Shown: positions 23,265 through 40,427, numbered from the stretch's first letter. The stretch is DNA of 64,000 bases from an uncultured Holophaga sp. (GCA_963664825.1 OY761614.1:2496001-2560000), one strand, 5' to 3'. Numbers and translations: made by a program. The notes: generated by a model from the sequence alone, not told the origin.

Positions 23265-23354
23265 GGAGAGTTGTCCGAGTGGCTGAAGGAGCACGATTGG
23301 AAATCGTGTAACGGGGTGACCCGTTCAAGAGTTCGAATCTCTTACTCTCCGCCA
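23265..23354 (+). tRNA. tRNA-Ser (GGA); probable integration site of the downstream element
   Basis: GGAGAGT acceptor stem, TTGGAAA anticodon loop, long variable arm, GTTCGAATC, encoded CCA. Confidence 0.97.
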
Positions 23355-23469: not shown

Positions 23470-23736
23470 CTACCGATCCGAGTCTTGTGTCACTTCCTGC
23501 TTGCGAGCGGCTTCCAGGTTGGCAACCAGGGCCTTGATCTCCTCCACGGTCTTCCCGGCGATTCGGGCCGCGTTGATCGCCTGGACCTCATGCTCTGGCC
23601 AGCCAACGGAACGGCTCCCGATCAGGACAGGGTGCGTGAAGAGACCTTTGGCGATGTCCTCTTGGTGGGACGTTCGGGAACGCCCGCGCCGTCGCAACAC
23701 TTCGGGAAGACGCAGGATGATGTAATCGTCTGACAT
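23470..23736 (-). CDS. AlpA-family regulator / excisionase
   Basis: ILRLPEVLRRRGRSRTS...GLFTHPVLIGSRSVGWPEHEV; GGAGG RBS. Confidence 0.88.
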   Translation of the reverse strand: MSDDYIILRLPEVLRRRGRSRTSHQEDIAKGLFTHPVLIGSRSVGWPEHEVQAINAARIAGKTVEEIKALVANLEAARKQEVTQDSDR

Positions 23737-23874
23737 GATTTCTGCCTCCTTTGTTGTGGAATGGGCCTGTGTAGCCCATGCGCTACAAGCGAGAAGGTAA
23801 GGGGAAGCAGGCGCGGGGGGCAACTCCGTTCCGACCCACTCTGGAATCCAAGAGATGAGGCATCACCCAGCCAC

Positions 23875-23902
23875 AAAAAAAGCCCCTCAAGAAGAGGGGC
23901 CT
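23875..23902 (-). terminator. Intrinsic terminator
   Basis: AGGCCCCTC-ttctt-GAGGGGC followed by T7 on the minus strand. Confidence 0.85.
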
Positions 23903-23988
23903 AACTAGCACTGTGAAGGATTGCGTTCTCCGATCACAGTGGCCTCCCTGCGGAGGACTTAAGCCCGATGCCGAAGCAGAGCGGAGAC
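23875..23988 (-). ncRNA. Predicted ~114-nt structured small RNA downstream of the PemK-like toxin
   Basis: Lies between a sigma70-like promoter (23995-24023) and an intrinsic terminator (23875-23902); contains three hairpins, one with a cUUCGg tetraloop. Confidence 0.65.
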
Positions 23989-23994
23989 AATTCA

Positions 23995-24023
23995 ACTGTA
24001 GGTTCCTAACGCGCACCAGTCAA
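23995..24023 (-). promoter_or_regulatory. Sigma70-type promoter overlapping the toxin stop codon
   Basis: TTGACT-N17-TACAGT on the minus strand. Confidence 0.65.
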
Positions 24024-24428
24024 GGGTTGAACAAGGATTCCCATCGCGCATGCAACACAACTTCGAATGTTTGCAAGCTCTTCCTTTGAAAAAATAAACG
24101 TGTGGTAGGTCCGACTACCGGTGCGGTCCTTCGAACACGGCAGATCCATCCGATCATATGACAGGGTGTAGACCATGTCTCCCTTAAGCCAACAGGTTGG
24201 AGAGGCGAATCGAGGGAGTGGAGGGTCGATTGTCAGCAATCGGTGATAGGGCTTCACCTCATAGGGCACGGTTGTGCTGAGCGGAACAACCGTACACAAC
24301 TTAACCCCGTCCCTGCGCCTTGGTGAGATGACTACACACAGTCTCGGTTTCACCATCTCTGGCTCAACGAAACCTCGGAAATCGCAGATGACCACTGTTC
24401 CAGGCTTTGGATCAAATGGAAGTGACAT
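24006..24428 (-). CDS. PemK/MazF-family toxin (endoribonuclease fold)
   Basis: PGTVVICDFRGFVEPEMVKPRLCVVISP...CTVVPLSTT...WLKGDMVYTLSYDRM. Confidence 0.82.
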   Translation of the reverse strand: MSLPFDPKPGTVVICDFRGFVEPEMVKPRLCVVISPRRRDGVKLCTVVPLSTTVPYEVKPYHRLLTIDPPLPRFASPTCWLKGDMVYTLSYDRMDLPCSKDRTGSRTYHTFIFSKEELANIRSCVACAMGILVQPLTGAR

Positions 24429-24603
24429 CTGGAAAGTCTACAACTAATCGATCATCTACCCAACCCGCTTCCATGACAATCTCCACGTCTCCAGGGTGTT
24501 CCGTGCGGTTTGTGGATACCTGCTCACCCTCATAGAGCACGAAGAGCTTCCCGCCTTTGGGAAGACTTCTCCGAAGTTTCTTCAGTTGTTCCTTGATTCC
24601 CAT
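24412..24603 (-). CDS. Hypothetical 63-aa protein overlapping the toxin start
   Basis: GAGG RBS; 17-nt overlap with the toxin gene. Confidence 0.55.
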   Translation of the reverse strand: MGIKEQLKKLRRSLPKGGKLFVLYEGEQVSTNRTEHPGDVEIVMEAGWVDDRLVVDFPDVTSI

Positions 24604-24647
24604 GGATTCCTCTTTTCGTGGCTATCGATGCGCCCATCCAAGCTTCC

Positions 24648-25565
24648 CTATGCCCGGACAGGAGCACCTGGCTTGAACCCAGCTCCTGTCTGGCGGTTGG
24701 GAAGGTTGACGGTCATTTCGGGAAGGGCTTCCAGCATCGCCAGAACCTCATCTTCCTGGTCCTCGGCTTTCGTAGTGGAAGCCTGCTCTCGTTCGTCGGC
24801 GTTCAACTTGATCCGGGACATGCGGGCCTTGACCTTCTCTTCATGCTGCTGAAGCATCAGGCCCAGGGCGATTCGTGCCGTGGCATCGCGGTTTCCAGCC
24901 AGTTCGTTAGCGGCGATCTCACCAGTTCGGAGCGCGACATCCCCCCGGTAAAAGGCCTCCTCGGCTTCCACAAGCGGCCCGATAGGCAGCGAGTCCAGGA
25001 AGAACGGAAGTTTTTTCAGGACCAGTGAGGCACAGTAAACCCGGCCCCATTGGCGATTCAGCGCGGCCTCCGTGGCCCAAAGGTTAGCCACTCCGAGAGG
25101 CATCGCGGCAAGCTCGGCTCGGAGGTTCGCCCGTACCGTGGCCTCCTGGGATTCCCAAAGGGCGCGGCCCGAGGTCGTGGTGTCTGGGGGGGCGGGCAGC
25201 ACACTCTGTTTACTCAGCACATTGATAGGGGAGGTCCAGATAGGCCGGGTTTCCTGAAATTCGGCATAGCGCGTCTTGAGTTCAGCCAGCAGGGCAGGCA
25301 CACGGGTTCCCCTGCGGATCTGGGCGATCTGTTCGGCCTTCCACTGTCCAGAGCGGGAAGCATCGTTCTGGGCAGCGTCTACGGCCTTCTGTTCGGCCGC
25401 TCTGGCGGCTTCGATCTCACCAGTGAGATTTGCCAGGGCGGTGCTGGCAGCTTGCAGTCCACTAAGCTCTGTAATGACCATTGCGTTCTCCGTGCGGGGA
25501 AGTCCCGTATAACCAAGGTCGCCCATCCGAATGCCTGATGTTGCCAAGAACTGTCCAAACGTCAT
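24648..25565 (-). CDS. Hypothetical alpha-helical phage protein (305 aa)
   Basis: Long Ala/Glu-rich ORF with ATGA overlap to the upstream gene. Confidence 0.65.
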   Translation of the reverse strand: MTFGQFLATSGIRMGDLGYTGLPRTENAMVITELSGLQAASTALANLTGEIEAARAAEQKAVDAAQNDASRSGQWKAEQIAQIRRGTRVPALLAELKTRYAEFQETRPIWTSPINVLSKQSVLPAPPDTTTSGRALWESQEATVRANLRAELAAMPLGVANLWATEAALNRQWGRVYCASLVLKKLPFFLDSLPIGPLVEAEEAFYRGDVALRTGEIAANELAGNRDATARIALGLMLQQHEEKVKARMSRIKLNADEREQASTTKAEDQEDEVLAMLEALPEMTVNLPNRQTGAGFKPGAPVRA

Positions 25566-25861
25566 GCAGCGGTAGACACGCGGCGGCGCTTGAGTTCCCG
25601 AGAATAGAGCCGGTCAACCTTCCAACGTGGAATGTCCATGGCGCAAGCAATGGCAAGGGCAGACTCACCCTTGCATCGGCGCTCATAGACCACGCGGGCG
25701 AGTAAATCCGTCTCGATGCGATGGGGGAAGTTCACCCGCTGGCCAAGGAAGCGCCGTATCAGGGCAAGGTAAACCCTTTGGCCTAGGTCATCCCCAAGCA
25801 TCCCAACCAAGAGCGGCAAGGCGTCCTCAGCCCGTGGGGTGTCAGGATCGCGGGGCTTCAT
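25562..25861 (-). CDS. Mor/C-like transcription activator
   Basis: LIRRFLGQRVNFP followed by a C-terminal HTH (ALAIACAMDIPRWKVDRL). Confidence 0.6.
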   Translation of the reverse strand: MKPRDPDTPRAEDALPLLVGMLGDDLGQRVYLALIRRFLGQRVNFPHRIETDLLARVVYERRCKGESALAIACAMDIPRWKVDRLYSRELKRRRVSTAA

Positions 25862-25865
25862 GGTG

Positions 25866-27098
25866 TCAGATCCCCAGGATCTTGATGGTTCCGGCGAAGC
25901 ACGGATTCAGCGGGAACTCGGAATGGACTAGGTAGCCAAGGGCATCGGGCAAATGGTCCAGGCCTAGGCGCTTGTCCGGCTCCATCGTGTCCTCTCGATA
26001 GGTGAGCCCTTCCAGGCAGTGAATCAGCTTCTCGCAGCGCTTGGCGATGAAGAGGCGGTGCTGCTCTTTCGCATTCAGGAAGAGGGCGTTCACTTCATTG
26101 ATGCGATCCGAGACGCTGGGAGCCTTGGGCGGGGCAATGACGCGGAATCCAGCCTGCCGAAGGATGGCAAAGTCTGTCTGCCCAACGTCTGCCGAGGTCT
26201 TCCGGGCGTTCCCGCTGGGGTCGGGATACACGTTGATGGATCGGCCCGGATAGCGCTTCTTGAGTTCATCGGCCATGCGCTGGGTGTTCGAGTTCGAGAG
26301 GCTGATTTCGTCCAGGATGTGGAGCTGATCCCCGGCCTTCACTCCCACCACTGCCGATAGGGGCGTGATGTTGAAGTCCATGCCCACCAGGAGCGCCCCG
26401 CCCGTGTCTTTCAGGTCTTCTCGGATATGAATGGCCCGGTCGAAGTTCTGATAGACCAGGCCGGTCATGCTCTCAAAGCTGGCCTCGTATTCCTGTTTGA
26501 AGCTCCTGGGGTCCAGTTCGGCGCGGGCGGCTTCGATCTCTTCCGGGGGCACCCGTCCGCCCTGGAGCGTGGTGAACTGGAAGGCTTCCCAGCCGTCCAT
26601 GATGAAAGCCCGCGTCCAGAGGGTGTGGAAATGGTTGAAGCCCTTCGGCGTCCCGATGAACAAGGCCCATCCTTGCCGGTCACTGAGGGCGGGCCTCAGC
26701 ACCTCGAACCACGCATCGGGGCTCATGTCTGCGAATTCGTCCAGGACAAGGCCATCCAAGCCCACGCCACGCAAGGAATCGTAATTGTCGGCACCTCGCA
26801 GGGCGATGACGCTTCCGTTCCGCAGTTCGATGGATAGGTCTGTCTCGTTGATCTTCCCGGCGTTGTTCTTCGGGATGAGCCCCTTGAGGATTTTCCAGCC
26901 GATTTGAGCGGCTTGGCGGTAGGAGGGGGCCACGAACCAAACGACGCGGCCTGGAGCCTCCAGGGCGGTCTTGAGGGCCGTTGCAATGGCAAGGTGAGTC
27001 TTCCCGAATCTGCGACCGGCGCACACAACCCGGAACCGGGCGGGGGATCGGAAGACCTGGGCTTGGGCTTCGGATAATCGGATGGGGTCTGAATTCAT
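25866..27098 (-). CDS. Phage terminase large subunit
   Basis: CAGRRFGKT (Walker A), LRGVGLDGLVLDEFA (Walker B), FIGTPKG, GMDFN, YPDPSG, DHLPDALGY. Confidence 0.93.
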   Translation of the reverse strand: MNSDPIRLSEAQAQVFRSPARFRVVCAGRRFGKTHLAIATALKTALEAPGRVVWFVAPSYRQAAQIGWKILKGLIPKNNAGKINETDLSIELRNGSVIALRGADNYDSLRGVGLDGLVLDEFADMSPDAWFEVLRPALSDRQGWALFIGTPKGFNHFHTLWTRAFIMDGWEAFQFTTLQGGRVPPEEIEAARAELDPRSFKQEYEASFESMTGLVYQNFDRAIHIREDLKDTGGALLVGMDFNITPLSAVVGVKAGDQLHILDEISLSNSNTQRMADELKKRYPGRSINVYPDPSGNARKTSADVGQTDFAILRQAGFRVIAPPKAPSVSDRINEVNALFLNAKEQHRLFIAKRCEKLIHCLEGLTYREDTMEPDKRLGLDHLPDALGYLVHSEFPLNPCFAGTIKILGI

Positions 27099-27404
27099 CG
27101 TGTCCTCTTGACGGAAGTTGAGACAGGAGCGAACATTGGTTGAGAATCTGACGGCTTGTAAGTGCCCTGTTTGGATTCAATTGAGAATGATGAATAGCGG
27201 ATTTTCGATAACAATGATTACGTAACCCTGTTCATCATCGAAAACCCGCGTCAATGCTCACTTTCATCATTGGTTGAGATTGAGAATCAACGGATTCGTG
27301 TTATCTTCGTTGAGCCATTCCTAAAAACTGGCTGAAATCTGAGTGATTCGGACTCATGGGAAGTAAGCCAGAGGGAGGTTCATGGTTCCCCCTGGCTCAC
27401 TCAT

Positions 27405-27836
27405 TCAGGAAGCCTTGTTTCCGAGTGTCGGCGTGGGTTCCGCCGTCACATCGATACAGGGCACCTCGATAATCAGAGGCGCGGGAAGGCTGTTCTCAAG
27501 CTCGATATCGACCTTGTCCTTCCACCCGGCCCGGTTCTTCAGGAAGAACTGGATCGCCTGCACATTGCCACTCACAGCGGCTTCGAAGAGGCTGTTGACC
27601 ACTTCCGCAATGCCCTGAGCCGTTCCCCGCTTGATTGCTTCCATCAATTCTATGTTTGATTTCTTACGATTGATGAGGGTTTGAACGCAAATACCAAGAG
27701 CGTCACATATTTGCTGTTGAGTAAGGCCCCTTGATGCCAGTGTCTCCACTTTCTTGATGTCGATTGGGATCATGGGGTATCCACGCTTCCCCCCTTTGGG
27801 TTTCGGTGGAGCCTTCTTCCTGGGTTTCGGCGTCAT
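27405..27836 (-). CDS. Probable terminase small subunit (HTH)
   Basis: GLTQQQICDALGICVQTL HTH and GNVQAIQFFLKNRAGWKD; upstream of TerL. Confidence 0.72.
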   Translation of the reverse strand: MTPKPRKKAPPKPKGGKRGYPMIPIDIKKVETLASRGLTQQQICDALGICVQTLINRKKSNIELMEAIKRGTAQGIAEVVNSLFEAAVSGNVQAIQFFLKNRAGWKDKVDIELENSLPAPLIIEVPCIDVTAEPTPTLGNKAS

Positions 27837-28561
27837 GATGCTTTCCTGTGTGAGTTCTGGAGCCTGAGATCCGGCATCTTGGTGAGCTGGACTATCGGGG
27901 CGAGGTCTTGGAGTCTGGAGAAGGTGCGGGGCCCGTAGCGATCCACAAGCCCCTTCGCGTCCAGGTTGCTTGTCCAGCAGGTTGCCCCCTGGTGACGGTG
28001 CCGCTCATCAATGACCCGTGCCAGGAGCTGGCCTACCCAATCCTGGGCGGTGACGGCTTCGGCTCCGATGTCATCGAGAATCAGGAGGCGCCCAGGGTCC
28101 AAGAGGGTATCCAGGATCCACGTTTCCACTTCCCCGGCGGTGTAGCGGTTGAAGAGCTGGGCCCTTGCCTTGGCTGTGGATTCTGGCCAGTTGATCCAGG
28201 ATGGCCATGGACGAAGGTAGATCCCCTGTTCTTCAACCGCCCGTCGGATGGGTTGGGCGTTCCCGGCTTCTATCAAGCGGGTCATGTGCTCCTCGGTGGC
28301 CCTTTCGGCGATACGGCGGACCATGGCAGAGACGGCGAAGGTTTTCCCGATGCCGAAGCCTCCGCACAGGCCGAAGCTCCATTGCTTGGGAAGAGACTTC
28401 TTGATGAGGTCGGGAACGTGGTCCCATCGTGCCGTGCGTTCATGGGGGGCTATGCCCACGGCCCTGAGATATGCCTCTACGAAGGCGGGACGCTGGTCCT
28501 GGAAGGCTTTCAGGAGTTCCTCGGGAATGGGTTCAAGCGCTCTTTCCATCACCCTCTCCAA
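27833..28561 (-). CDS. DnaC/IstB-like helicase-loader ATPase
   Basis: GGFGIGKT, LLILDDIGAE, IDERH, TSNL, RTFSRL. Confidence 0.85.
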   Translation of the reverse strand: MERVMERALEPIPEELLKAFQDQRPAFVEAYLRAVGIAPHERTARWDHVPDLIKKSLPKQWSFGLCGGFGIGKTFAVSAMVRRIAERATEEHMTRLIEAGNAQPIRRAVEEQGIYLRPWPSWINWPESTAKARAQLFNRYTAGEVETWILDTLLDPGRLLILDDIGAEAVTAQDWVGQLLARVIDERHRHQGATCWTSNLDAKGLVDRYGPRTFSRLQDLAPIVQLTKMPDLRLQNSHRKAS

Positions 28562-29420
28562 AGAATGCAGCGTTCTGTTTCACGTAGTCCTCACCCGCTT
28601 GGCCTTTGAGGGATGGGGCCCCTGCCTTCTGGGTGGTGCCCTTGTCCTTCGCCCTGGCCAGCCAAGAGGAGATGAACTTCCCCATCCCGGCATAGGTCTT
28701 TTGCCGTGTGGGGTTCTGTTCGAGCCAGAACTTCATGCCGCGGGCCTCTGAGAGCGGGTTCAGTTCCGGGAAGGCTTCCTTCCAGTCGTCCAGCTTCGAC
28801 TGGGTGAGGTGATAGTGCTTCCCCTTCTGGCAAGGCAGAGCCAGGAGCACGGGATCGGGGTTCGACCCATGATTTTCCCCTCCCTGGCTGGGGGCAGAAT
28901 CCGAGCGAAGCAAAGGATTAAAAGATGAAGATGAAGATGAAGAGCCGTCTCCAAAGGGGGGCATTGGTGGGGGCATTGGTGACGGGTTGGGTGAGTCATC
29001 GGGGGGTTGTCCACCTTCACTGATAAACCGGCTGGCCTTCCCTCGGTTCTGCCTCACGTATTCGTCTCGAACCATGCGACTGGAATACCAGAGTGGCCCC
29101 GGCTGCTCTGGTATCAGCTCCACAGGGAACCCACGCTGCCCCGCATGGCAAGGGGTGAACACGAAGACATCACACATCGTCCCTTCGTCGGCTCCCTTGA
29201 TGACGTTCTTGTTCACGAGAGCGACAAGGATTGATGCCTTGCAGCCGATGGCCTGGGCCAGTTCCTTCAAGGGCCAGCGCACAATCCCGTATTCGTCGCT
29301 GTCATGTGCGAGGCAAAGGAAGTCCATGTTGACCCCCTTCTCCTCATGGGTGCAGCGGCGCAAGTTGGTATTGGCCGCGTAATCGCCAGGGTAAAACTGG
29401 AAGCTAGGTCGTCTCGCCAT
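28533..29420 (-). CDS. Phage replication initiator (replisome organiser type)
   Basis: N-terminal MARRPSFQFYPGDY, low-complexity linker, C-terminal W...NPTRQKT...FISSWL; adjacent to DnaC. Confidence 0.75.
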   Translation of the reverse strand: MARRPSFQFYPGDYAANTNLRRCTHEEKGVNMDFLCLAHDSDEYGIVRWPLKELAQAIGCKASILVALVNKNVIKGADEGTMCDVFVFTPCHAGQRGFPVELIPEQPGPLWYSSRMVRDEYVRQNRGKASRFISEGGQPPDDSPNPSPMPPPMPPFGDGSSSSSSSFNPLLRSDSAPSQGGENHGSNPDPVLLALPCQKGKHYHLTQSKLDDWKEAFPELNPLSEARGMKFWLEQNPTRQKTYAGMGKFISSWLARAKDKGTTQKAGAPSLKGQAGEDYVKQNAAFFGEGDGKSA

Positions 29421-29632
29421 CACCGCCTCCGCTGAAAGTAGTGGCCACCTCCCGAGCGGCGAACGGGTTGCGGCTTCGGGAGGTGACAGGGGGCGGGTTC
29501 GGGCTCCATGTGCAGGATCTCCTGATACCAGCGTTCGATGGAATCCGGGTCCATGGAGGTGCCGAAGGGCTCGGGATTGAGCGCGAGGTGTGGCCAGACG
29601 GCGGGCTGAAGAAGAAGTCTGGATCCGCTCAT
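29420..29632 (-). CDS. Hypothetical 70-aa protein
   Basis: Start and stop overlap both neighbours (ATGA and TGATG). Confidence 0.5.
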   Translation of the reverse strand: MSGSRLLLQPAVWPHLALNPEPFGTSMDPDSIERWYQEILHMEPEPAPCHLPKPQPVRRSGGGHYFQRRR

Positions 29633-30573
29633 TCCGGCGCTCCTGAAAGCGTTCGAGCCTTGATTGCGTCCAGATAGGCCGGGTCGTCATGGGGTAGCGT
29701 CCACCAACGCTCTTGATCCATCCAATCCCGATGGGTTTCAAAAACCAGGTGAGGCCATGACCAGCGCTTCTCGAAGGTCAATTCCTCACCATCGGGTTCG
29801 TCGGACACGGGGAATTGATCCCATGCAGCCTCCGCGAGGGGGAAGGACTCTTCTTTAAGCCCTCGAGTGACGAAGTTCCTATGGATCGGCCTCTTCGTGC
29901 CCATGACTTCACCTGCTCCGCTGGGGGCAATCTTCGTCACCACGACATACAGGTAGTCGTTTCCATCCACATTCCTACGGGACGATGACTCGAAAGATTC
30001 TGAGGGCATGATGAAGGCGTCCCATCGCACCCCATCCACCGCGCACTTTCCATGCGCCCCAAAGTTGGGGGCAGGGATCCAGGCTTCAACCGTGGCCACC
30101 TCGGGAGTGTCATTGGATGACACCCTCGGGGTGTTAACGGTTGACACCCGCTCGGATCGCATGTTTGAGACAAATTGATTGGAGACTCCGCATCGGCGGG
30201 CAATCTCCCGGTCTGACCATTGGCTCCACTCGGGGTCATCGAGGAGGGCGGAGGCGGCGCGGCGCTTGTCGGCATTGGTCCGGCGCAAGCCATGGGTCTG
30301 ATTGGCCCCCACGGCGAAGAGACGGGCATCGCGCTGGGTTCCCTGCCGGATCTCGGCGGGGATGTCCTGGAGCCCTGCAAGGCGGGCCCCTTCCACACGA
30401 TGGAAGCCGTCGGCAAGCCAGTAATCGGTGCCGTCATGGAACACGGTGACGGGCGGGAAGATGGCCCCGGCCTTCATCGCATCGGCGTATTCAGCACAGG
30501 TCGTTGAATCCAAGGCGGCGCGGGTTTGAGTGCCTCCATCCATGCGGATTGAACTGATTGGAAGGTCCCTCAT
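29629..30573 (-). CDS. ParB/Srx-like N-terminal domain plus HTH protein
   Basis: GTQTR, FPPVTVF, LADGFHR, WSDREIARRCGVS. Confidence 0.82.
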   Translation of the reverse strand: MRDLPISSIRMDGGTQTRAALDSTTCAEYADAMKAGAIFPPVTVFHDGTDYWLADGFHRVEGARLAGLQDIPAEIRQGTQRDARLFAVGANQTHGLRRTNADKRRAASALLDDPEWSQWSDREIARRCGVSNQFVSNMRSERVSTVNTPRVSSNDTPEVATVEAWIPAPNFGAHGKCAVDGVRWDAFIMPSESFESSSRRNVDGNDYLYVVVTKIAPSGAGEVMGTKRPIHRNFVTRGLKEESFPLAEAAWDQFPVSDEPDGEELTFEKRWSWPHLVFETHRDWMDQERWWTLPHDDPAYLDAIKARTLSGAPE

Positions 30574-30866
30574 TCCGCGACCTCATCCACTCGCAGCTTC
30601 CAGGACGGGCAAAGCGTGGTGAGGCACTTTCCGGGCTTCTTGGCCTGGCAGAAGTATTCCAGCGTCGTCGCGCCCGGGTATTCCTTTTGGAATGCGGCCG
30701 GGGCACCGACATCACGCTGTGCCTTAAACCGGCAGGTAGCGCAGGAGTGGGAGGCCGGGTTGTCATGACACCGGGCCTCATGGGCCTTGCAGGAGCTTGC
30801 GGAGGCATAGGGCCTGCCGTGTCCAGGGGCACAGTGTTCGCAGCGGTAAGCGGTGATGGTCTTCAT
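30570..30866 (-). CDS. Cys/His-rich putative Zn-binding phage protein
   Basis: YRCEHC...CKAHEARC...CATC; GGAGA RBS; ATGA overlap with parB. Confidence 0.65.
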   Translation of the reverse strand: MKTITAYRCEHCAPGHGRPYASASSCKAHEARCHDNPASHSCATCRFKAQRDVGAPAAFQKEYPGATTLEYFCQAKKPGKCLTTLCPSWKLRVDEVAE

Positions 30867-30915
30867 TGGTATCTCTCCGATTGGATGATTGATTTCGATT
30901 GAATGCGTGTGCTTC

Positions 30916-31332
30916 TCAGCCCGGGTCAACTTCAACGCCGAGCAGTTCCGCTTTCTGGCGTCTTCGCTCCATGAGGTTCTGAGCGTGGTAGAAATCTCGG
31001 ATCGCAAAGAGGGCTTCACGCTGGGTTGCTCGGGTCGCTCGGCGCGGGAGTAGAAGCACGGCGGGAGAGCCGTCAAGCAGCGTGTCACCAGGGACGAAGA
31101 GCCACCCTGGAAGGGAACCGCGGTCGCCTGCCAAGATCACCGAGTGTTCCTCTCCGGCTTCCCAGAGTTCGGGAATGATGCAGGTCTGAGGCGCTGGAAC
31201 CTTCCTATGGATTCGGCTGAAGGTATTGATCCCGATCCCATCCCAAGGACGGGAGAGGGGCAGTCCCTTTCTGGCCCCTTGGGTGATGGTGTTCAATTTC
31301 GAACAGGTCGAAGGCGTGGTGGTGGTCTTCAT
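30916..31332 (-). CDS. Hypothetical phage protein
   Basis: ATGA overlap with the upstream ORF. Confidence 0.55.
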   Translation of the reverse strand: MKTTTTPSTCSKLNTITQGARKGLPLSRPWDGIGINTFSRIHRKVPAPQTCIIPELWEAGEEHSVILAGDRGSLPGWLFVPGDTLLDGSPAVLLLPRRATRATQREALFAIRDFYHAQNLMERRRQKAELLGVEVDPG

Positions 31333-31685
31333 GCCGTCACCTTCCCAAGCAGCGCCGATCCCTCATAGATCAGCGACAGGGTGCGAAGCATGGTTTCAGC
31401 GACTGGCAGAACATCGGAGTCGCATATATCGACGCCCACCATGTGCGCCATCTCTTCCATGCGCTCCTTGTGGGCTTCGAATCGAGCGTAATGAAGATCC
31501 TGCTGAAGTTCCTCCTCAGTTGCTGTGTGGAGAAAGTCATCCACTGATAGGGTGCGGATTAGATCGAAGGCCAGCTCTCTCGGAATCTCCACCATCGAGA
31601 CATGGAGATCACGGTCACTGGATCTCCAGAGGATGTCGGGAGCGGGGCAGGCCTTCGGCGTGGTGGTGCTATTCGTGGTCGTCAT
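31329..31685 (-). CDS. Hypothetical phage protein
   Basis: GAGG RBS before MTTTNS; co-oriented with the operon. Confidence 0.55.
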   Translation of the reverse strand: MTTTNSTTTPKACPAPDILWRSSDRDLHVSMVEIPRELAFDLIRTLSVDDFLHTATEEELQQDLHYARFEAHKERMEEMAHMVGVDICDSDVLPVAETMLRTLSLIYEGSALLGKVTA

Positions 31686-31699
31686 TGTCGTGATCCTCT

Positions 31700-31942
31700 T
31701 CAGCAGGCTTCGGGAAGGTTGTGGCCGGGTTTGCGGAGCAACCAAGCCGAGACTTCGGGAATGTTGAAGAGGAGACGGCCACCCAGGCGCCGATGGGGAA
31801 GACCATCCTGCATGACGATCATGCGGTTGATGTTCGCCGTGCTGCCGAGGGCGGGAAGGGCCACTTGCAGGGCCTTGACGGTTGCCACCCACTCAGGGGG
31901 CACTACAGCCTTTTCAGGCTGGGGATTGAAGGGAAGGGACAT
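31700..31942 (-). CDS. Excisionase-like HTH protein
   Basis: GLPHRRLGGRLLFNIPEVSAWL (MerR/Xis-type wing). Confidence 0.7.
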   Translation of the reverse strand: MSLPFNPQPEKAVVPPEWVATVKALQVALPALGSTANINRMIVMQDGLPHRRLGGRLLFNIPEVSAWLLRKPGHNLPEAC

Positions 31943-32096
31943 TGATTTCTCCAACAAGTTTGGGCCTGTTGCGCCGGTTCCCCTTGGCCCATACTTGTTG
32001 GGTCCGGCGTAGTGCGTAGCTGTGCTGCTCGGGTTCCCCCTGATGCCCCTCGGTCTGCCAGGACCAAGGAAAACGGCATGGGGGGATGTTCTTTTA

Positions 32097-32549
32097 TTAG
32101 GCTATTTGGTTATCTTTCGTCTGTGCTCTGAGTTTGTATTCTGAGTTTGTAACAGAATTATACCTTCCTTCTTTGCCTGCATTTATCGCTACTCCGCGCC
32201 ATAATTCATCATCTTTGCACCTGCGATTTAGTGCTTCCATTTCTTCTGGGCCGTAATCTTTATTGAGTTTTTTGTATTTTTCTCGCTCGTGGATTGTGAG
32301 CAACATAACTCCTTCTTGCCAATCAATAAACTCTTGAGTGTTTCTAAAACCCATCTCGATGGCATATTTTTGATTTGCCATTCGCCATTGCTCTTCGGGC
32401 CTCGCAAGGGAAATTAAACGTAGGAGCGCTTGGGTCCTAGAAACGCCGAATCCACCCTCTTGAGACAGGAAGGCGGCGTATTGGTCAAGCCATTCCAGCG
32501 TCTCGGGGGGGAGCCGGAATGCGGCCTGGATTGTCTTGGGTTCGTCCAT
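32097..32549 (-). CDS. Putative ribbon-helix-helix regulator, low-GC gene
   Basis: QAAFRLPPETLEWLDQYA...SRTQALLRLI; AT-rich 3' half. Confidence 0.55.
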   Translation of the reverse strand: MDEPKTIQAAFRLPPETLEWLDQYAAFLSQEGGFGVSRTQALLRLISLARPEEQWRMANQKYAIEMGFRNTQEFIDWQEGVMLLTIHEREKYKKLNKDYGPEEMEALNRRCKDDELWRGVAINAGKEGRYNSVTNSEYKLRAQTKDNQIA

Positions 32550-32606
32550 GTTCCCAATGTAAACCAATCGGTCCCACTGTCAACATCCATGAACAATCTT
32601 TTTTTC

Positions 32607-32838
32607 TCATGGCTTTAAGTTCTTCTTCTTGCGTGACTTATCCCCGCCGAATCCCTCGATTGCTTCCCCGATCTGCTCAACCGCGGCCCGCAGCGGGTCC
32701 AGGTCGGCATGGGAATACCGCTCCGTGGTCTTGGAGCTGGCATGGCCCAGGAGCTTCTGACGAAGGGTGATGTTCTGATTGAGGGTCACTGAGAGGGTGC
32801 CGAAGGAATGCCGGAGGTCGTGCATCCGAACGTCTGGA
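32607..32838 (-). pseudogene. C-terminal fragment of a tyrosine integrase, cut by IS66
   Basis: PDVRMHDLRHSFGT...LLGHASSKTTERYSH; the upstream coding sequence is replaced by the IS end at 32839. Confidence 0.9.
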
Positions 32839-34466
32839 GTATCGATTCACCCCCCTTGTCCCTGTGACCACGTAAGCCGGTGGCAGGCAGCCATGATGGG
32901 CTGGTGATGTCCCGCTTGCCCTGGCAGCCTCAGGCTGGTTCCAGTGCCGGTAGGGGCTGGTTGGATCGGGCGGAGTGGAGGGCCCTGAGCAGCCAGTCGA
33001 AGTAGGGGACGCCGCGGATGCGGGCGGTGGTGCCCAGGCTCAGGAGGCGTTCGAAGAATCGCTTTCCGTCCGCGCTGGGCAGTCGCTGGAAGATCCGCTT
33101 GAGGATCACGAGGGGGCGCAGGGCCCGCTCGGCCGCATTGTTCGTCGGCTCCACGCCCTCGACCTTCAGGAACACCCAGAGCTTGTCCCATTTCCGGAGG
33201 AGGTCCTTCCCGAGGTTTCGGGCGGCCTTGTGATCCATCGCGCTGGCCTGGATCAGACCGCGTTTGAGCCGCGCCAGATTGATGGCGGTGCAGGCCCGGA
33301 GCTCTTTCCGGCTGATGTCGCCCGCCCGGAAGGTGTGCCACAGCGCAAAGATCTCCTCCTGCTCGGCGAGCAGTCGCTTTCCCAGTGCGGCCACCTCGGG
33401 CTTCTGGGATTCGCTCAGGGCGACGAACTCGCGGCGCAAATGGGCCCAGCAGAACTGGCGAACGGCAGATTTTAAGGCGTTGTAGGCGCCGTAGCGGTCC
33501 GTGCCAATCACGCCTTGGAAGTCCTCGGGAAGTATCGCCTTTAGGGCCCTCGCCCCACGGGTGTCACTGAAGTGGAAGAGGGCCGTACGGGCGGAAAGGG
33601 CCACCCAGATCCAGTCCCGGTCCTTCCGGCCGAAGCCGGTCTCGTCGAGGTTGAGCACATCCGCCGTACGGATCTGCTGGGAGAGGTCCTCCCAGGCGGG
33701 GAGTAGGTGGCTCCCCAGCGCCACACCGCTCTCGTGCAGCCAACCGCGTGAGACCGCTACGCCCGTCATCTCCGAGAGGAAACGCTGGAGCGGCGTCAGG
33801 CTCATGCGGCCCTCTGTGCGCAGATAGGCCGCCGCAGCCTGAAGGCGCGGGCCGATCCCGCCCGGCGCAGCCTCTGGGGGAAGCGGCGCCTGCACCTTCC
33901 TCTGGCAGTGCGGGCAGATCCCCTCCTCCAGCGCGTAGGCGATGACTTCTGTGAGGCGCTGAGCCAGATCCACCACCCGGTGCAGGCGCGTCCCGGTGAT
34001 GGCCCCTGAAGGAACCTCGCCTCGGCAGTGGGGGCAACAGGCGAGGGGCACCGAAACCGTACGGTCCTCGCTGCCTTCCGGCAGCATCACCCGAGCGGAT
34101 CCCTTCCGTCCCGGTTGGCCGCCGCGCTTGCGCCCCGTGGGCGGCGCCGGTGGCTTGGGTGGCGCCGCGGGTCCGTCCGAACTGGGGGGCTTGCTGCTGT
34201 TGCGACTGTCCTTCCCGAGGCGATCCTGGAGCGACTCCAGCAATTTTTCCAGGCGTTCCATCGCCTCCCGCAGGCAGACCATTTCCGCACGCAGTTCCCC
34301 GTTCTCGGCAGCCAGGGCCAGATAACGCGGATCAGTCAGAACAGGATCAAGCTCCATCCTTCAGAATCTGACTGGTTTGAGACCAAAGTACAAGCGAATT
34401 ATTCACTTGCGGTGATTTTATCCTCAATCACGAGTTGAGCCTGCATGGGGGGGGGTGAATCGATAC
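32839..34466 (-). mobile_element. IS66-family element (single ORF, ISBst12-like), copy 1, no TSD
   Basis: 1628 bp; TIR GTATCGATTCACCCCCC at both ends; flanks CGTCTGGA and TCCCCTTT do not match. Confidence 0.93.
32930..34357 (-). CDS. IS66-family transposase
   Basis: SRNSSKPPSSD, GGQPG, CPHC twice, DETG, TDRY, QFCWAHLRR, TNNAAERALR. Confidence 0.95.
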   Translation of the reverse strand: MELDPVLTDPRYLALAAENGELRAEMVCLREAMERLEKLLESLQDRLGKDSRNSSKPPSSDGPAAPPKPPAPPTGRKRGGQPGRKGSARVMLPEGSEDRTVSVPLACCPHCRGEVPSGAITGTRLHRVVDLAQRLTEVIAYALEEGICPHCQRKVQAPLPPEAAPGGIGPRLQAAAAYLRTEGRMSLTPLQRFLSEMTGVAVSRGWLHESGVALGSHLLPAWEDLSQQIRTADVLNLDETGFGRKDRDWIWVALSARTALFHFSDTRGARALKAILPEDFQGVIGTDRYGAYNALKSAVRQFCWAHLRREFVALSESQKPEVAALGKRLLAEQEEIFALWHTFRAGDISRKELRACTAINLARLKRGLIQASAMDHKAARNLGKDLLRKWDKLWVFLKVEGVEPTNNAAERALRPLVILKRIFQRLPSADGKRFFERLLSLGTTARIRGVPYFDWLLRALHSARSNQPLPALEPA

Positions 34467-35987: not shown

Positions 35988-36110
35988 GCCTAACGATACG
36001 AGCTAACCGGCGCTGCCGAAGCGGCGCGGTGAGCGGGGATGAGAAATCGGAAAGAACGGCGAGGACGGTGCCTCGCAGAGGCAGCGTCTAGGTTGAGCGA
36101 CCGGTTAGGC
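35988..36110 (-). repeat. attC site
   Basis: GCCTAAC...GTTGAGCGACCGGTTAGGC; near-identical to 41012-41134. Confidence 0.92.
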
Positions 36111-36388
36111 GAGAACGCAGCGTTGGTGCGGGCCGCGATGGTTCGAAGCGATCCGATTGGATTGGCGTTCCTGGACCTGGAAGCTTGCATGGGCAAATCG
36201 GAGAAATGGGCCGAGAAGAGCCGTGCTGCTGAATTGGAAAGGCCGTTGGGCTAGGCGCGTGTTCGAATTGTCGGAGCGTACTCGGAACGATGATAGCGGT
36301 TTTATCGATTAAGTTGACGTGGCTGGATAGTTGGAAGGAAAGCGCTGGGAGAGTTTTGCAGTTCAGCAACGCCAGAAAGCCAGGAGAC
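36111..36388 (-). other. ORF-less gene cassette, copy 2
   Basis: No convincing RBS-ATG ORF; 12 substitutions relative to 41135-41412. Confidence 0.7.
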
Positions 36389-36511
36389 GCCTAACGATTG
36401 GAGTTAACCGGCGCTGCCGAAGCGGCGCGGTGGTGAGAGACGAGAAATCCGAACGCTGATCGAGGACGGTGACTCGCAGAGGCAGCGTCCGGGTTGAACG
36501 ATTGGTTAGGC
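36389..36511 (-). repeat. attC site
   Basis: GCCTAAC-N5-AGTTAACCGGCGCTGCC...GGCAGCGTCCGGGTTGAACGATTGGTTAGGC. Confidence 0.93.
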
Positions 36512-37093
36512 ATGCCGGGATGCACGCTTAAGTTGCTTGAGAAGGTCAAGGACATCTCCAGAACAACCGCTGCCGGAGAAATCGAGGGGGCCGACCCCCA
36601 GGGCCAAACCAACCAAGTCACAGTATTGCTGTATGTCTTCTATGAATTTGAGCAACTCTTGTTCTGATGTTTCTCCGAGTGGAGCGCCCTGAACTTGATG
36701 TGCATAGTCAAAATGGGCGATGAATTTATCGCGAGCGGGTTTTAGTTTTTCACCGTATTCAACGATAGAGCCGCCTGTCGTCGATATTTCTGAGGACAAC
36801 AAATCTATGCGCTTGAGTGCCCGATTCAATAGCTGGACAGTGATGTTGTAGTGAATACCATCTTTGCGTTTTGATTCGGGCGGATCAGAAAGTTTACATG
36901 CTTGAAGTATCCAATCTCGCTGAAGAATATTGGCAATGTCGGTAAAAAATGTCGGCGCTGTTTTAGAAAGAATTTCGCGAGATGATTCGTTGAATAATTC
37001 TATATAAGTGTTGTAGTCGCGCCTGAGGCGGATGCAGTGATCTCGGAGATGAGTGAAGATCTCGATGGCGTAATCGGATTCGCTCATTGGCAT
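36506..37093 (-). CDS. Cassette gene: HEPN (AbiU2-like) domain protein
   Basis: Helical protein with ARDKFIAHFD (R-x5-H) and LQACKLSDP; stop codon lies inside the attC. Confidence 0.7.
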   Translation of the reverse strand: MPMSESDYAIEIFTHLRDHCIRLRRDYNTYIELFNESSREILSKTAPTFFTDIANILQRDWILQACKLSDPPESKRKDGIHYNITVQLLNRALKRIDLLSSEISTTGGSIVEYGEKLKPARDKFIAHFDYAHQVQGAPLGETSEQELLKFIEDIQQYCDLVGLALGVGPLDFSGSGCSGDVLDLLKQLKRASRHA

Positions 37094-37215
37094 GCCTAAC
37101 GAGTGAGTTAACCGGCGCTACCGAAGCGGCGCGACGAGGGGAGTGTAGAAATCGGAGCGATTGGTGGTGATTGTAAGAACAAGAGGTAGCGTCCGGGTTG
37201 AACGATTGGTTAGGC
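37094..37215 (-). repeat. attC site
   Basis: Same family as 37501-37622 and 41413-41534. Confidence 0.93.
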
Positions 37216-37243
37216 CGAAATGGGATCAACAACAATGCCAGCT

Positions 37244-37462
37244 TTAAACACCTAATTCAGAACGTAGAGAAGTTAAATATTGAATCGCTGTGTCGAAAAT
37301 TGGCCCGGCACATGCCTTGCAAAAATTTTCGACGTCCCTAAGGCCGTGTTTGACAACGAGGTGCTGTTCGCCTGGAGCAATTTCACAAGAGTAGTGACAA
37401 GTCCTGGTGGCTTTGGCCTTGTCGATTTTGATATTGACGGTAATGTTTTTGCTTTTAGCCAT
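37244..37462 (-). CDS. Cassette gene: 72-aa putative Zn-finger protein
   Basis: AAGGAG RBS; RTCHYSCEI...FCKAC. Confidence 0.7.
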   Translation of the reverse strand: MAKSKNITVNIKIDKAKATRTCHYSCEIAPGEQHLVVKHGLRDVENFCKACAGPIFDTAIQYLTSLRSELGV

Positions 37463-37500
37463 GCTTCACTCCTTGAGAGTTGCAGGTTGGTTCGTGAGAG

Positions 37501-37622
37501 GCCTAACGAGTGAGTTAACCGGCGCTACCGAAGCGGCGCGACGATGGGAGTGTAGGAATCAGAGCGATTGGTGGTGGTTGTAAGAACAAGAGGTAGCGTC
37601 CGGGTTGAACGATTGGTTAGGG
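37501..37622 (-). repeat. attC site
   Basis: Ends GTTAGGG, which matches the CCCTAAC at 38036 at the other end of the same cassette. Confidence 0.93.
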
Positions 37623-37636
37623 CGAAGAGAGACATG

Positions 37637-38017
37637 CTAATTTAATTTGTAAAGGACTGTGAGTTTGAACTTTGCAGCATACGGTTTGCCGTCGATAAGA
37701 GCGGGAAGAAACCTGAATTGCATAGCGAAGGTTTCAGCACTGGCTCTTAATTCAACTGGACCTGATAAGATCTCTGTCTTGATTGGAATCCCCTTGTCAT
37801 CGAGAAGAATCATCACCTCGACTGTTCCGTGGATTCCGAGAGCCTTGGCTTCAGCAGGCTCATCAGGGGCTGGTGGTTGGTATTTAATCTCAACCTGAGT
37901 GAAAGCAAATTTCTTTCCATCCTTATCGTAGTAGGCCTTGGAGGGACGTACATCAGTGCTGGGCTTGGTGCAGGAGATGAGGCCCAAACACATGATGGTA
38001 AGGATTAGACAGCGCAT
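37637..38017 (-). CDS. Cassette gene: lipoprotein with TonB C-terminal domain
   Basis: Lipobox-like LISC; PAEAKALGIHGTVEV...FRFLPALIDGKP. Confidence 0.8.
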   Translation of the reverse strand: MRCLILTIMCLGLISCTKPSTDVRPSKAYYDKDGKKFAFTQVEIKYQPPAPDEPAEAKALGIHGTVEVMILLDDKGIPIKTEILSGPVELRASAETFAMQFRFLPALIDGKPYAAKFKLTVLYKLN

Positions 38018-38035
38018 TAGGTTCCTTAGAATGAG

Positions 38036-38158
38036 CCCTAACGATTGGAGTTAACCGGCACTACCGAAGCGGCGCGTTGAGGGGAGACGAGAAATCGGAA
38101 TGCTGGGAGGGGAAAGTGACTCGCAGAGGTAGCGTCCGAGTTGAACGATTGGTTAGGC
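38036..38158 (-). repeat. attC site
   Basis: CCCTAAC...GTTGAACGATTGGTTAGGC. Confidence 0.93.
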
Positions 38159-38173
38159 ACGATGCCGTATATA

Positions 38174-38452
38174 TCAATCTTGAGCTCTGCCGCCCTGGTC
38201 ATATGCAGCGCGTTTCCGCCACAATTTTTGCCCTTTCTCCCAAATAACATCGTCGCCTGTGAGTTTTTTGAACTCTTTCAGGACAGACTTGTCAATCGCG
38301 GTGCCTCCATTTTGATTGAAGTACCAATGGGGCTTACCGAATTTTGTCATTATCTGAACTACAGCAACCTCTTGATACAGGTAATGAACTTTGTTGAGCT
38401 CTTCGAGCATCCACTGAGCTACAGTTTTGGCATCAACTTCTTGCATGATCAC
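38174..38452 (-). CDS. Cassette gene 2 of 2: conserved hypothetical protein (resembles DUF6953)
   Basis: VAQWMLEEL...LYQ...NGGTAIDKSVLKEFKKLT...W; GTGA overlap with the upstream gene. Confidence 0.65.
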   Translation of the reverse strand: MIMQEVDAKTVAQWMLEELNKVHYLYQEVAVVQIMTKFGKPHWYFNQNGGTAIDKSVLKEFKKLTGDDVIWEKGQKLWRKRAAYDQGGRAQD

Positions 38453-38637
38453 TTCTCTTCGTTTGAGGCTTCAAGAACGCCCTCTATAAAATGATTGGAA
38501 TTTAACTTGGGACCCGCAAACCATTGGCAATGGTATTCAATTGGATCCATATCAGAATAGACATTTGCAACAGTCATTTTTGGGCCTCCAGATTTTAGGC
38601 AAACCTGCTGGCCTGTTTGGAATTTTGTCTTTTTCAT
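38449..38637 (-). CDS. Cassette gene 1 of 2: YodC/DUF2158-family protein
   Basis: FQTGQQVCLKSGGPKMTV...CQWF; AGGAGG RBS. Confidence 0.82.
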   Translation of the reverse strand: MKKTKFQTGQQVCLKSGGPKMTVANVYSDMDPIEYHCQWFAGPKLNSNHFIEGVLEASNEEK

Positions 38638-38661
38638 GAAGTACCTCCTGGTTGATAGAGT

Positions 38662-38786
38662 GCCTAACGAAAGGAGTTAACCGGACCAACAGCCGGTGGG
38701 ATGTTCGAGGGGGACGAGAAAGCGGGATGCATGGGGGAGATTGGAAGACTGTGGCTGTTGGGTCCGGGTTGAACGATTGGTTAGGC
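38662..38786 (-). repeat. attC site (variant subfamily)
   Basis: CCGGACCAACAGC...GCTGTTGGGTCCGG; near-identical to 42100-42224. Confidence 0.93.
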
Positions 38787-39053
38787 CGATGTTGACCATT
38801 TTCGTGATAGGTACCTAGCAAGAAAGAATGTGCCGATATTAAGACAGAAATGCGTAAGAGCCATTTGGAAAGCTTGAAGATGCGTTAGATATTCTTGATC
38901 GCCACCGAGATAGCCAAAGCCGATTGGTATCCGAAATTCCGGGATGTCGGTAACGAACCACACGCGACTTGGGAGAGCCAAGGAGAGGACGAGGAAGGTC
39001 CACCAACACACCCAAACAACCCTCTGTCTTCTCGTTCTTTGTAGGACGGGCAT
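38781..39053 (-). CDS. Cassette gene: small two-TM membrane protein
   Basis: Fills the cassette; stop codon lies inside the attC. Confidence 0.6.
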   Translation of the reverse strand: MPVLQRTRRQRVVWVCWWTFLVLSLALPSRVWFVTDIPEFRIPIGFGYLGGDQEYLTHLQAFQMALTHFCLNIGTFFLARYLSRKWSTSA

Positions 39054-39059
39054 TGTGAT

Positions 39060-39181
39060 GCCTAACGAGTGAGTTAACCGGCGCTACCGAAGCGGCGCGA
39101 CGAGTGGAGACGAGGAATCGGAATGGCCGATGAGGACGCTGCCTCGCAGAGGTAGCGTCCGGGTTGAACGATTTGTTAGGC
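39060..39181 (-). repeat. attC site
   Basis: GCCTAAC...GTTGAACGATTTGTTAGGC. Confidence 0.93.
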
Positions 39182-39198
39182 TGGTGCCGTGCATGAGG

Positions 39199-39345
39199 TC
39201 ATTGCTGGTGTTCGTTGAGTCGCTTTTCTAATTTGCGAACCTTGAAGAAGGCGATGACCCCAAGGATGCCACCGCCAAGGCAGACAACGCCGATAAGGCA
39301 GCCAGGAATCATCAAAACGAGTTCAGTAAGTCCGAGATTGCCCAC
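39199..39345 (-). CDS. Cassette gene: 48-aa single-TM peptide (not in the ORF track)
   Basis: AAGGAGG RBS and GTG start; MGNLGLTELVLMIPGCLIGVVCLGGGILGVIAFFKVRKLEKRLNEHQQ. Confidence 0.75.
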   Translation of the reverse strand: MGNLGLTELVLMIPGCLIGVVCLGGGILGVIAFFKVRKLEKRLNEHQQ

Positions 39346-39364
39346 TGGGCCTCCTTGAATTGCA

Positions 39365-39487
39365 GCCTAACGATCGGAGCTAACCGGCGCTGCCGAAGCG
39401 GCGCGGAGCGAGAGTGACGAGAAATCCGAACGATGGTGAGGACGGTGCCTCGCAGAGGCAGCGTCCGGGTTGAGCGATTGGTTAGGC
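39365..39487 (-). repeat. attC site
   Basis: GCCTAAC...GTTGAGCGATTGGTTAGGC. Confidence 0.93.
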
Positions 39488-39488
39488 A

Positions 39489-40046: not shown

Positions 40047-40064
40047 CTGGATCTCCTGGGTAAT

Positions 40065-40088
40065 GCCTAACTTTGAATTGGACGAACC
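40065..40088 (-). other. Internal attI-like site
   Basis: 22 of 24 nt identical to attI at 42641-42664; occupies the position where an attC would be expected. Confidence 0.7.
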
Positions 40089-40291
40089 CGACGAAGTGCT
40101 TCGTAGTTCGCCTAATCGGGGTTGAGTGGAAGTGTAAATGTTGACAGAACCGTGAAGCTAGAAAAAGGGGGAAGCGGAATAGGCAGACAGGAAATGGGCG
40201 GATGGGAGGGCGTTTTGGGAGGGGAGCCGAAGGAGACAAGTTTCATATGAGTACGCCCGAAATTTTAGGCAAATCGCGCCTCGGGTAAGCG

Positions 40292-40413: not shown

Positions 40414-40427
40414 AGCGCGGGAGACCC

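Follow-up and report, generated by a model that had tools for sequence, protein, structure and literature searches.

A gene for a PemK/MazF-fold putative toxin in a prophage-like remnant of an uncultured Holophaga sp. is accompanied by a small structured non-coding RNA, and toxin and RNA move together between phyla. Comparative sequence evidence strongly supports this RNA as the partner of an orphan PemK family. The best reading of the data is a new family of RNA-antitoxin (type III-like) systems, which is none of ToxIN, CptIN, TenpIN or AbiF. The RNA family is real, conserved and apparently undescribed: no account of the toxin-RNA pairing was found in the open-licence PMC/bioRxiv literature, and subscription journals may hold a prior report. 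Antitoxin activity of the RNA and a role of the cassette in anti-phage defence are what we infer from the findings below.

The locus in its genomic surroundings

The window (the whole stretch of DNA that was analysed, 64 kb) holds toxin gene, promoter, RNA and terminator within a cassette of about 550 bp (Table 1), and its source genome has one toxin gene and one RNA copy. The cassette sits near one end of the element, by tRNA-Ser. The surrounding prophage-like remnant (23470-34357) carries AlpA, terminase subunits, and replication-like and ParB-like genes; it is bounded by tRNA-Ser and an IS66 transposase (32933-34357). An att repeat was not found within the window, and no repeat of at least 12 nt of the tRNA-Ser 3' region occurs elsewhere in it. 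The ORF-free structured unit on the minus strand, described in a first-pass annotation of the locus together with its terminator, is present, and so is the promoter that the same annotation had placed across the toxin stop codon.

Table 1. Features of the toxin-RNA cassette and of the element that carries it (window coordinates).
Feature	Position	Strand	Remarks
PemK/MazF-fold putative toxin ORF, 140 aa	24006..24428	-	Pfam PF02452 PemK_toxin, E 2.3e-9
Sigma70-type promoter of the RNA, TTGACT-17-TACAGT, spanning the toxin stop codon	23995..24023	-	
Structured non-coding RNA core, candidate RNA antitoxin, predicted +1 = 23988	23903..23988	-	Model R1, 81.2 bits (the window sequence is part of the R1 training set)
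P1 hairpin: 4-bp base stem, internal loop, 3-bp upper stem with UUCG loop	23964..23985	-	
Unpaired linker CUUAA, then G and bulged U (consensus YUAAG-W-CC)	23957..23963	-	Candidate toxin contact
P2 hairpin; G-C pair across the bulged base closes the stem	23942..23958	-	
P3, 8-bp stem with P4 on top	23909..23941	-	
P4: 3-bp stem, 8-nt loop GA-NNN-CAA	23918..23931	-	
Intrinsic terminator	23875..23902	-	Hairpin 23902-23880 and U-run
63-aa ORF, 17-nt overlap with toxin start	24412..24603	-	No family
AlpA-family regulator, end of prophage-like element	23470..23736	-	PF05930
tRNA-Ser(GGA), element edge, probable integration site	23265..23354	+	
Terminase large subunit, prophage-like element	25866..27098	-	PF03237, PF17289

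The toxin protein

Judged by its sequence and predicted structure, the 140-aa protein is a YifN-like PemK/MazF-fold RNase and putative toxin that keeps the MazF active-site residues. Its AlphaFold2 model (pLDDT 86.5) aligns with S. aureus MazF at Z 14.1 (rmsd 2.4, 114 residues aligned), with CptN at Z 10.1 (rmsd 4.2, 115 aligned), with ToxN at Z 6.7 (rmsd 5.4, 106 aligned) and 5.8, and with AbiQ at Z 6.2; identity to CptN, ToxN and AbiQ in these alignments is 8-11%. The Foldseek matches listed are MazF-family chains, and a profile search of the PDB with the toxin returned MazF chains only. PADLOC reported nothing for the toxin, and Pfam reported PF02452 only. Profile alignment places E24, R29 and S51/T52 of the toxin at E24, R29 and T52/T53 of E. 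coli MazF, where we take R29 and T52 to be catalytic.

The family comprises 781 clusters at 50% identity with E<=1e-10, and the database names of its members are YifN/PemK or 'type II PemK/MazF'. E24, K27, R29, S51, K82, D84 and R93 are present in all 146 of 146 unique homologs, W80 and R106 in 145, and T52 in 134. The median pI of these 146 proteins is 9.4.

Fold and covariation of the RNA

None of 200 shuffled sequences folds as well as the 116-nt unit (z -3.56), whose conserved part, three hairpins ahead of the terminator, is about 86 nt long. The main covariation test is based on a sequence-only alignment of 62 RNAs. In this alignment the architecture P1-linker-P2-P3(P4) is paired in 96.3% of cells, and double changes affect 18 of its 23 pairs; the covariation score is 0.536 versus 0.195 for shuffled alignments and at most 0.138 for slid registers. 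Double changes rise to 22 of 23 pairs in a model-fitted alignment of 100 RNAs, and the 18 column pairs with the strongest corrected mutual information are all nested pairs of the RNA model. A conserved structure beside homologs of the toxin, anticipated by the first-pass annotation, is thereby found.

The base stem of P1 (23985-23982/23967-23964) is paired in 98% of cells with double changes in three of four pairs, and the upper part of P1 is absent in several clades. P2 is paired in 99% of cells (double changes in four of five pairs). In P3, double changes affect seven of eight pairs in the sequence-only and eight of eight in the model-fitted alignment, and in P4 three of three. Hairpins 2 and 3 had been drawn correctly in the first-pass annotation. 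Hairpin 1 had been drawn there in a register (GCUC/GGGC) that is paired in 74.6% of cells versus 73.1% after shuffling, and the real pairs are those of the base stem given above. The proposed pseudoknot or switch between UCUCCG and CGGAGA fails in the same way (63% paired versus 61% shuffled; covariation 0.131 versus 0.117, where a pseudoknot built of invariant bases would give no covariation signal), and the GGA of CGGAGA is one arm of the conserved P4.

The most conserved sequence of the RNA is the YUAAG-W-CC linker region, and we regard the linker between P1 and P2 as a candidate site of toxin contact. A weak extra covariation joins the second A of the linker with one pair of P2, which may reflect a base triple or a clade effect. 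For the window copy alone, ViennaRNA prefers to pair the 5' end with the 3' arm of hairpin 2 and assigns pair probabilities of 0.02-0.15 to P1 and P2. The RNA model rests on covariation; we count this predicted ensemble against the local fold of the window copy and not against the family model. No match at the Rfam gathering score was obtained for the window, 20 toxin loci, 20 stand-alone loci or the yifN RNA. A likeness to the twister-sister ribozyme was considered and dropped, since the strand order differs and Rfam gives no hit.

Transcription signals and gene arrangement

Between 22500 and 26000 of the window there are three promoter-like sites versus 0.9 expected, so that the window promoter is weak evidence on its own. 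A sigma70-like promoter, defined by a -10 box that ends 3-8 nt ahead of the first base of the RNA, precedes 77 of 132 unique toxin-linked RNAs versus 2.3% of random positions. A terminator follows 109 of the same 132, versus 4% of random positions.

Among 131 unique toxin-RNA pairs the RNA lies downstream of the toxin in 124, upstream in four and convergent in three; locus L053 is a fifth upstream case besides these. At the convergent loci (L011, L073 and L124) the RNA cores do not reach into the coding region, their ends being 23-31 nt beyond the stop codon, and at L026 and L039 the RNA overlaps the extended 3' end of the toxin gene. These mixed positions exclude a role as 3'-UTR and argue that the molecule acts as a free RNA. 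Comparative evidence thus upholds the first-pass view that an orphan PemK family has as its partner a single-copy RNA with a promoter of its own. The upstream and convergent pairs show that the downstream position proposed there does not hold for every locus.

At one locus, L113, two RNA copies (1426-1510 and 2459-2530) lie on either side of the toxin at a distance of about 1 kb, and both run into the same terminator and sequence beyond it, which suggests duplication or stacking of cassettes. The E. coli plasmid p5217 (L319:926-991) carries a toxin homolog with a convergent, reduced RNA that lacks P4 and has promoter-like and terminator-like signals of its own.

Linkage of toxin and RNA

The toxin loci examined were the 80 top-ranking of 560 matches in genomes and the 80 top-ranking of 123 in viruses. 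Model R1 or R2 detects an RNA at E<0.01 at 157 of these 160, and at the other three (L008, L106 and L108) the contig ends at or just past the toxin stop codon. Many of the 160 loci had been used to train the two covariance models, and the E-values are rough; independent genome samples therefore matter.

In the order to which the window belongs, six of 133 genomes have the toxin, and the same six have a strong RNA match adjoining it; three weak RNA matches lie elsewhere. A sample around a Legionellaceae locus covered 400 genomes of its class (one more was left unscored) and gave nine further toxin genes, seven with RNA, one at a contig end and one broken and without RNA. In the family Rhodobacteraceae, eight of 151 genomes have the toxin. 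Five of these carry the RNA (one being the centre genome of the sample), one toxin lies at a contig end, and two are broken and without RNA; two or three other genomes of this sample have the RNA and no toxin remnant. Pooling the two proteobacterial samples, the RNA accompanies 12 of 17 toxin genes, two lie at contig ends, and all three that lack the RNA are broken. The RNA, for its part, survives beside partial toxin genes and without a toxin. It is the toxin that depends on the RNA and not the reverse, the pattern of a toxin with its antidote.

Mapped on a quick toxin tree of 141 columns, the RNA subtype changes 8 times, versus about 39.5 times when shuffled, and it is almost uniform in a toxin clade of 58 rows which spans several phyla. 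This result shows co-inheritance, not co-evolution.

Distribution and genomic context

The cassette is carried by prophages, among them Vibrio prophages that also have the RNA, and by plasmids (71 records). A scan of 95 proteins placed many cassettes among housekeeping genes. Clear, known defence genes were found within 2 kb at about 9 of 51 loci, a count from 150 of 418 neighbouring proteins and without a background control. The genomic context allows a role in defence and does not establish it.

Some individual sites may be recorded here. In six alphaproteobacterial loci (L028, L042, L046, L059, L070 and L080) the cassette sits directly behind dnaN, a fixed chromosomal site. At L023:741-2037 it has a piece of a type IIG restriction-modification gene on either side. 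The Rfam family sRNA-Xcc1 is matched about 1 kb from the cassette at two prophage loci (L142:3475-3559 and L153:3483-3568).

Stand-alone copies of the RNA

A DNA pattern for P1 and the linker matched 79 genome loci and 76 viral loci, with a toxin within 1.2 kb at 51 of the former and 16 of the latter. Of the 88 toxin-free loci, 75 (16 genome, 59 viral; near-duplicates and five loci with short upstream flanks included) are matched by model R2 at E<=0.001; the 59 viral ones are out of 60 toxin-free viral loci. The other 13 of the 88 were dropped as chance or weak matches (nine unscored, four at E>0.01). Conservation of P1 and the linker is no evidence here, because the pattern selects for them. 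P2 and P3 do count, since nothing was asked of P2 beyond its first CC.

The stand-alone set comprises 62 unique RNAs, of which 11 have a sigma70 promoter and 14 a terminator; the P4 loop is present in 14 of them versus 121 of 132 toxin-linked RNAs. About 18 are full-length relics, some behind a BstA, endolysin or integrase gene. Among 43 short copies, P2 has at least four pairs in 42, and a P3-like hairpin with a different tip mostly comes next. A metagenome scan of at least 120 stretches gave a similar picture for P4, found in 34 of 40 toxin-linked versus 5 of 31 toxin-free copies (those with enough flank that passed a crude P2 filter). A second RNA subtype also has a short stand-alone viral copy in one of two matches.

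Neighbours of the short stand-alone copies are genes for ribonucleotide reductase, single-strand binding protein, tail fibre, terminase or repressor. Stand-alone copies often begin just past a stop codon or a tRNA, and pairs of them surround one gene at L172 and L253. Three lie about 5 nt after tRNA-Tyr (L248, L257 and L292), and two are beside other tRNAs (L244 and L278). At L329 (G113:C1:1443481-1443566), a short-type RNA directly follows an apparent tRNA 3' end in a genome that has a toxin cassette elsewhere. A permuted tmRNA match (L251:494-692) lies near a stand-alone RNA and tRNA-Met on a viral contig. Full-length RNA with terminator and without toxin is found at L176 (BstA), L255 (phrog_5137), L282 (phrog_6324), L254 (endolysin) and L245 (integrase), where exchange of cargo at one slot is possible.

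Among cultured phages, blastn found no full stand-alone copy. Synechococcus phage S-CBS2 (L493:1201-1261) has an exact P1 between terL and a sigma factor gene, with one further hairpin but without linker and P2, and is a lead only. Two other matches were rejected: an 18-nt match to the YifN-type RNA in E. coli jumbo phages, which is intergenic, upstream of an opposite-strand gene and without R2 hit, and Kompost-2, a 20-nt fragment at E 0.25.

The yifN locus of E. coli

YifN proteins form a clade about 30% identical to the window protein. In E. coli K-12, yifN is a pseudogene that matches the toxin profile in two frames. It is followed by a promoter-like TTGACA-17-GATAAT, two hairpins joined by CCUAAG, and a terminator. 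Of 5426 complete E. coli genomes, 4016 have the locus; strain S51 has an intact copy of the gene. A corresponding RNA unit lies behind YifN-clade genes at 12 of 13 loci (Enterobacterales, Legionellaceae and Trinickia); at the thirteenth it was not visible in the stretch examined. Model R2 gives no score for the YifN-clade RNA, and joint alignment with the main family is poor. The YifN-clade RNA is therefore a positional and architectural counterpart and not a proven homolog, with position and layout as the grounds on which homology may be argued.

Expression evidence for the RNA comes from this distant clade only. According to Romero et al. (2014; PMC4681348), a 79-nt small RNA behind E. coli yifN, ecr3777(d+), was detected by RNA-seq and northern blot and is among five northern-positive RNAs. 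It corresponds to L318:1410-1481, between yifN and ppiC of K-12. Its 5' end at 3959981 (offset 1977 from GlmZ) compares with 3959980 as predicted here. In Table S9 of that paper, the probe labelled ecr3777(d+) has no match to the yifN locus, the probe labelled ecr2775(u+) reads as exactly complementary to the yifN-locus RNA, and both RNAs are among the five positives; the labels of these two probes appear to be swapped.

Proposed mechanism

We consider it likely that the RNA is a direct antitoxin, made from its own promoter, which binds the MazF-fold RNase via the linker, and that loss of its transcription frees the toxin. The toxin would be a translation-blocking endoribonuclease, probably a dimer as MazF, and would usually be expressed by read-through from upstream transcription. 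The RNA would be made in excess from a near-consensus promoter, and would bind and block the basic toxin via the YUAAG linker held between P1 and P2. A stop of host transcription, as on takeover by a phage, or loss of the element would let the RNA decay, upon which the toxin would arrest the cell, with abortive infection or addiction as the outcome. Stand-alone P1-linker-P2-P3 copies in phages could be decoys which keep the toxin inhibited. Based on this, we tentatively put forward a wider hypothesis, which we hold to be possible and no firmer than that: an independent family of RNA antitoxins may have arisen inside the type II MazF clade, spread over many phyla, with a reduced form at yifN, directed against phages and countered by widespread phage decoys that retain the core for toxin binding but do without the P4 loop.

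Alternative explanations

A type II system, in which the toxin is held in check by the 63-aa protein or by one from another locus and the RNA is a by-product or a cis element, would suit a fold closest to type II MazF and the labels of the homologs, as well as the overlap of the 63-aa ORF with the toxin start. As the first-pass annotation had stated, there is no AbrB/MazE-type antitoxin among the neighbours of the window toxin. Upstream sequence was available for 141 unique loci; a same-strand ORF is close by at 114 of them, and the largest family of such ORFs covers 9. From one locus to the next the upstream genes bear no relation to each other (dnaN, repressors, integrases, transposases). 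A small HTH-like ORF lies upstream in one subclade of 9 loci, which would fit such a system, but members of this subclade also carry the RNA. A tblastn comparison of the 63-aa ORF with the other toxin loci gave no match below E 1, and the ESM Atlas returned unnamed clusters only. What is conserved beside the homologs is the RNA structure, and the 63-aa ORF is without counterpart at these loci, which agrees with the RNA antitoxin first proposed. A complex prediction for the toxin dimer with the 63-aa protein (score 0.14) was counted neither for nor against, and a protein partner acting in trans is unlikely given that the cassette crosses phyla. Overall, we judge a type II system to be highly unlikely. 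We attach hardly any probability to silencing of the toxin mRNA by an antitoxin that pairs with it (type I or CreTA-like). The three convergent copies could be read in this way, but their cores have no coding overlap. Moreover, among 40 sampled loci cognate RNA-mRNA pairing is no better than non-cognate (the latter better in 47% of comparisons; longest perfect complement 7.8 versus 7.5 nt), and the same conserved RNA letters accompany toxins with diverged mRNAs. There is no conserved protein antitoxin, and no antisense pairing.

The RNA might instead be a cofactor, sensor or specificity element of an RNP nuclease, needed for action or as a trigger and not a blocker. Tight linkage and the extra invariant basic residues of the toxin would fit any stable RNP, and the P4 loop, kept when toxin-linked and lost in phage copies, could sense. 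However, a cofactor should vanish with a broken gene, whereas this RNA persists beside partial toxins or none, and it is the toxins lacking RNA that are broken. No variable guide-like segment is evident in the RNA, and to our knowledge MazF-fold RNases are active without RNA cofactors. This explanation appears unlikely to us. The stand-alone copies raise a further one, namely that phages use the P1-linker-P2-P3 core generally, between genes and after tRNAs, as a module for RNA processing or self-cleavage, and that the toxin cassette has borrowed it. Their positions after tRNA-Tyr and beside other tRNAs, past stop codons and in pairs around genes speak for it, and these features, mostly without a promoter, fit a processing element as well as a decoy. 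Against it, neither an Rfam ribozyme nor another Rfam family is matched, and at toxin loci the RNA has a full transcription unit of its own, from promoter to terminator, which in some cases faces the gene. Some clades do without the P1 internal loop and some without the P4 loop, which leaves no constant catalytic core. We regard such a module as distinctly improbable, and direct inhibition of the toxin by the RNA as the preferred reading.

Relation to known systems

The type III systems ToxIN, CptIN and TenpIN are described in PMC5086642 and PMC12283969 by tandem repeats, a pseudoknot and an operon of RNA, terminator and toxin. Together with AbiQ they share with the present system a MazF/Kid-fold endoribonuclease (here by fold and residues) and a non-coding RNA, and further homes in prophages and on plasmids and an RNA type that tracks the toxin tree (PMC5086642, PMC12283969). 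Type III in the broad sense means an RNA antitoxin that binds the toxin protein; the cassette has a dedicated linked RNA and no protein antitoxin, and its RNA would have to bind and inhibit the toxin directly. Its prophage and plasmid homes and some defence neighbours would allow abortive infection or stabilisation of the element. The hallmarks (tandem repeats, pseudoknot, upstream RNA in one operon) are mostly absent. The present toxin is not a member of the ToxN, CptN or TenpN families by sequence and is structurally nearer to type II MazF than to CptN, ToxN and AbiQ. Its RNA is one unit per locus, except at L113, instead of tandem repeats, shows no pseudoknot covariation in place of the H-type pseudoknot, and is usually downstream with its own promoter. 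The type III order of promoter, RNA, terminator and toxin is found in one clade and not in the window. A search by the usual rule of repeats, terminator and toxin would miss a system with a single, usually downstream unit.

MazEF, PemIK and Kis-Kid share the toxin fold and active-site residues. In contrast to these systems, the neighbour that is obligate here is an RNA and there is no conserved adjacent protein antitoxin, and the toxin has extra invariant basic and aromatic residues. With regard to type I and other antisense systems, the present RNA is not complementary to the toxin mRNA. The Rfam pemK RNA motif lies upstream of pemK genes in Bacillota and resembles the present RNA as a structured RNA tied to PemK-family genes. 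It presumably differs in toxin clade, position and hosts, and Rfam searches gave no match between it and the present RNA.

AbiF is an RNase neutralised by a small structured cis-encoded RNA (AbiFr, RCd22) via direct binding (bioRxiv 10.1101/2025.04.15.648962; PMC12737573), and an abiF RNA is predicted in a cyanophage genome (PMC9964418). AbiF differs from the present toxin as a HEPN nuclease of another fold, and the present RNA is unmatched by abiF RF03085. The pseudo-ToxI of phage PhiTE is a phage RNA which resembles the host RNA antitoxin and allows escape from abortive infection (PMC3475682). It becomes effective upon repeat expansion in rare mutants of one phage, whereas near-complete single copies occur here in dozens of unrelated viral contigs, with a putative role as decoys. 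The RNA ecr3777(d+) (PMC4681348) shares the position by a homologous toxin, promoter and terminator of its own, and the layout hairpin-YUAAG-hairpin; it is shorter, lacks P3 and P4, and is neither given a function nor linked to the toxin in the excerpted parts of that paper.

RNA antitoxins are known from few families, and the present one would add to these. A toxin annotated as an ordinary type II MazF would actually be controlled by RNA, and with 781 clusters many 'orphan' PemK genes would be explained. It would also show that toxins of one fold can pass directly from a protein antitoxin to an RNA, here a single unrepeated one, and it offers a candidate function for E. coli yifN and its orphan small RNA. 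If the decoy role is true, few cases of RNA-based counter-defence would be as broad as that of the stand-alone copies in phages.

Another region of the window

Outside the prophage-like remnant, the region 36000-43880 of the window has a low GC content (48-51%) and ends in an integron-type tyrosine integrase (42855-43880, plus strand). It contains short minus-strand genes, including one for a HEPN AbiU2 protein (36509-37093), and a near-duplicated stretch (about 36100-36400 and about 41100-41400). This region looks like an integron with cassettes.
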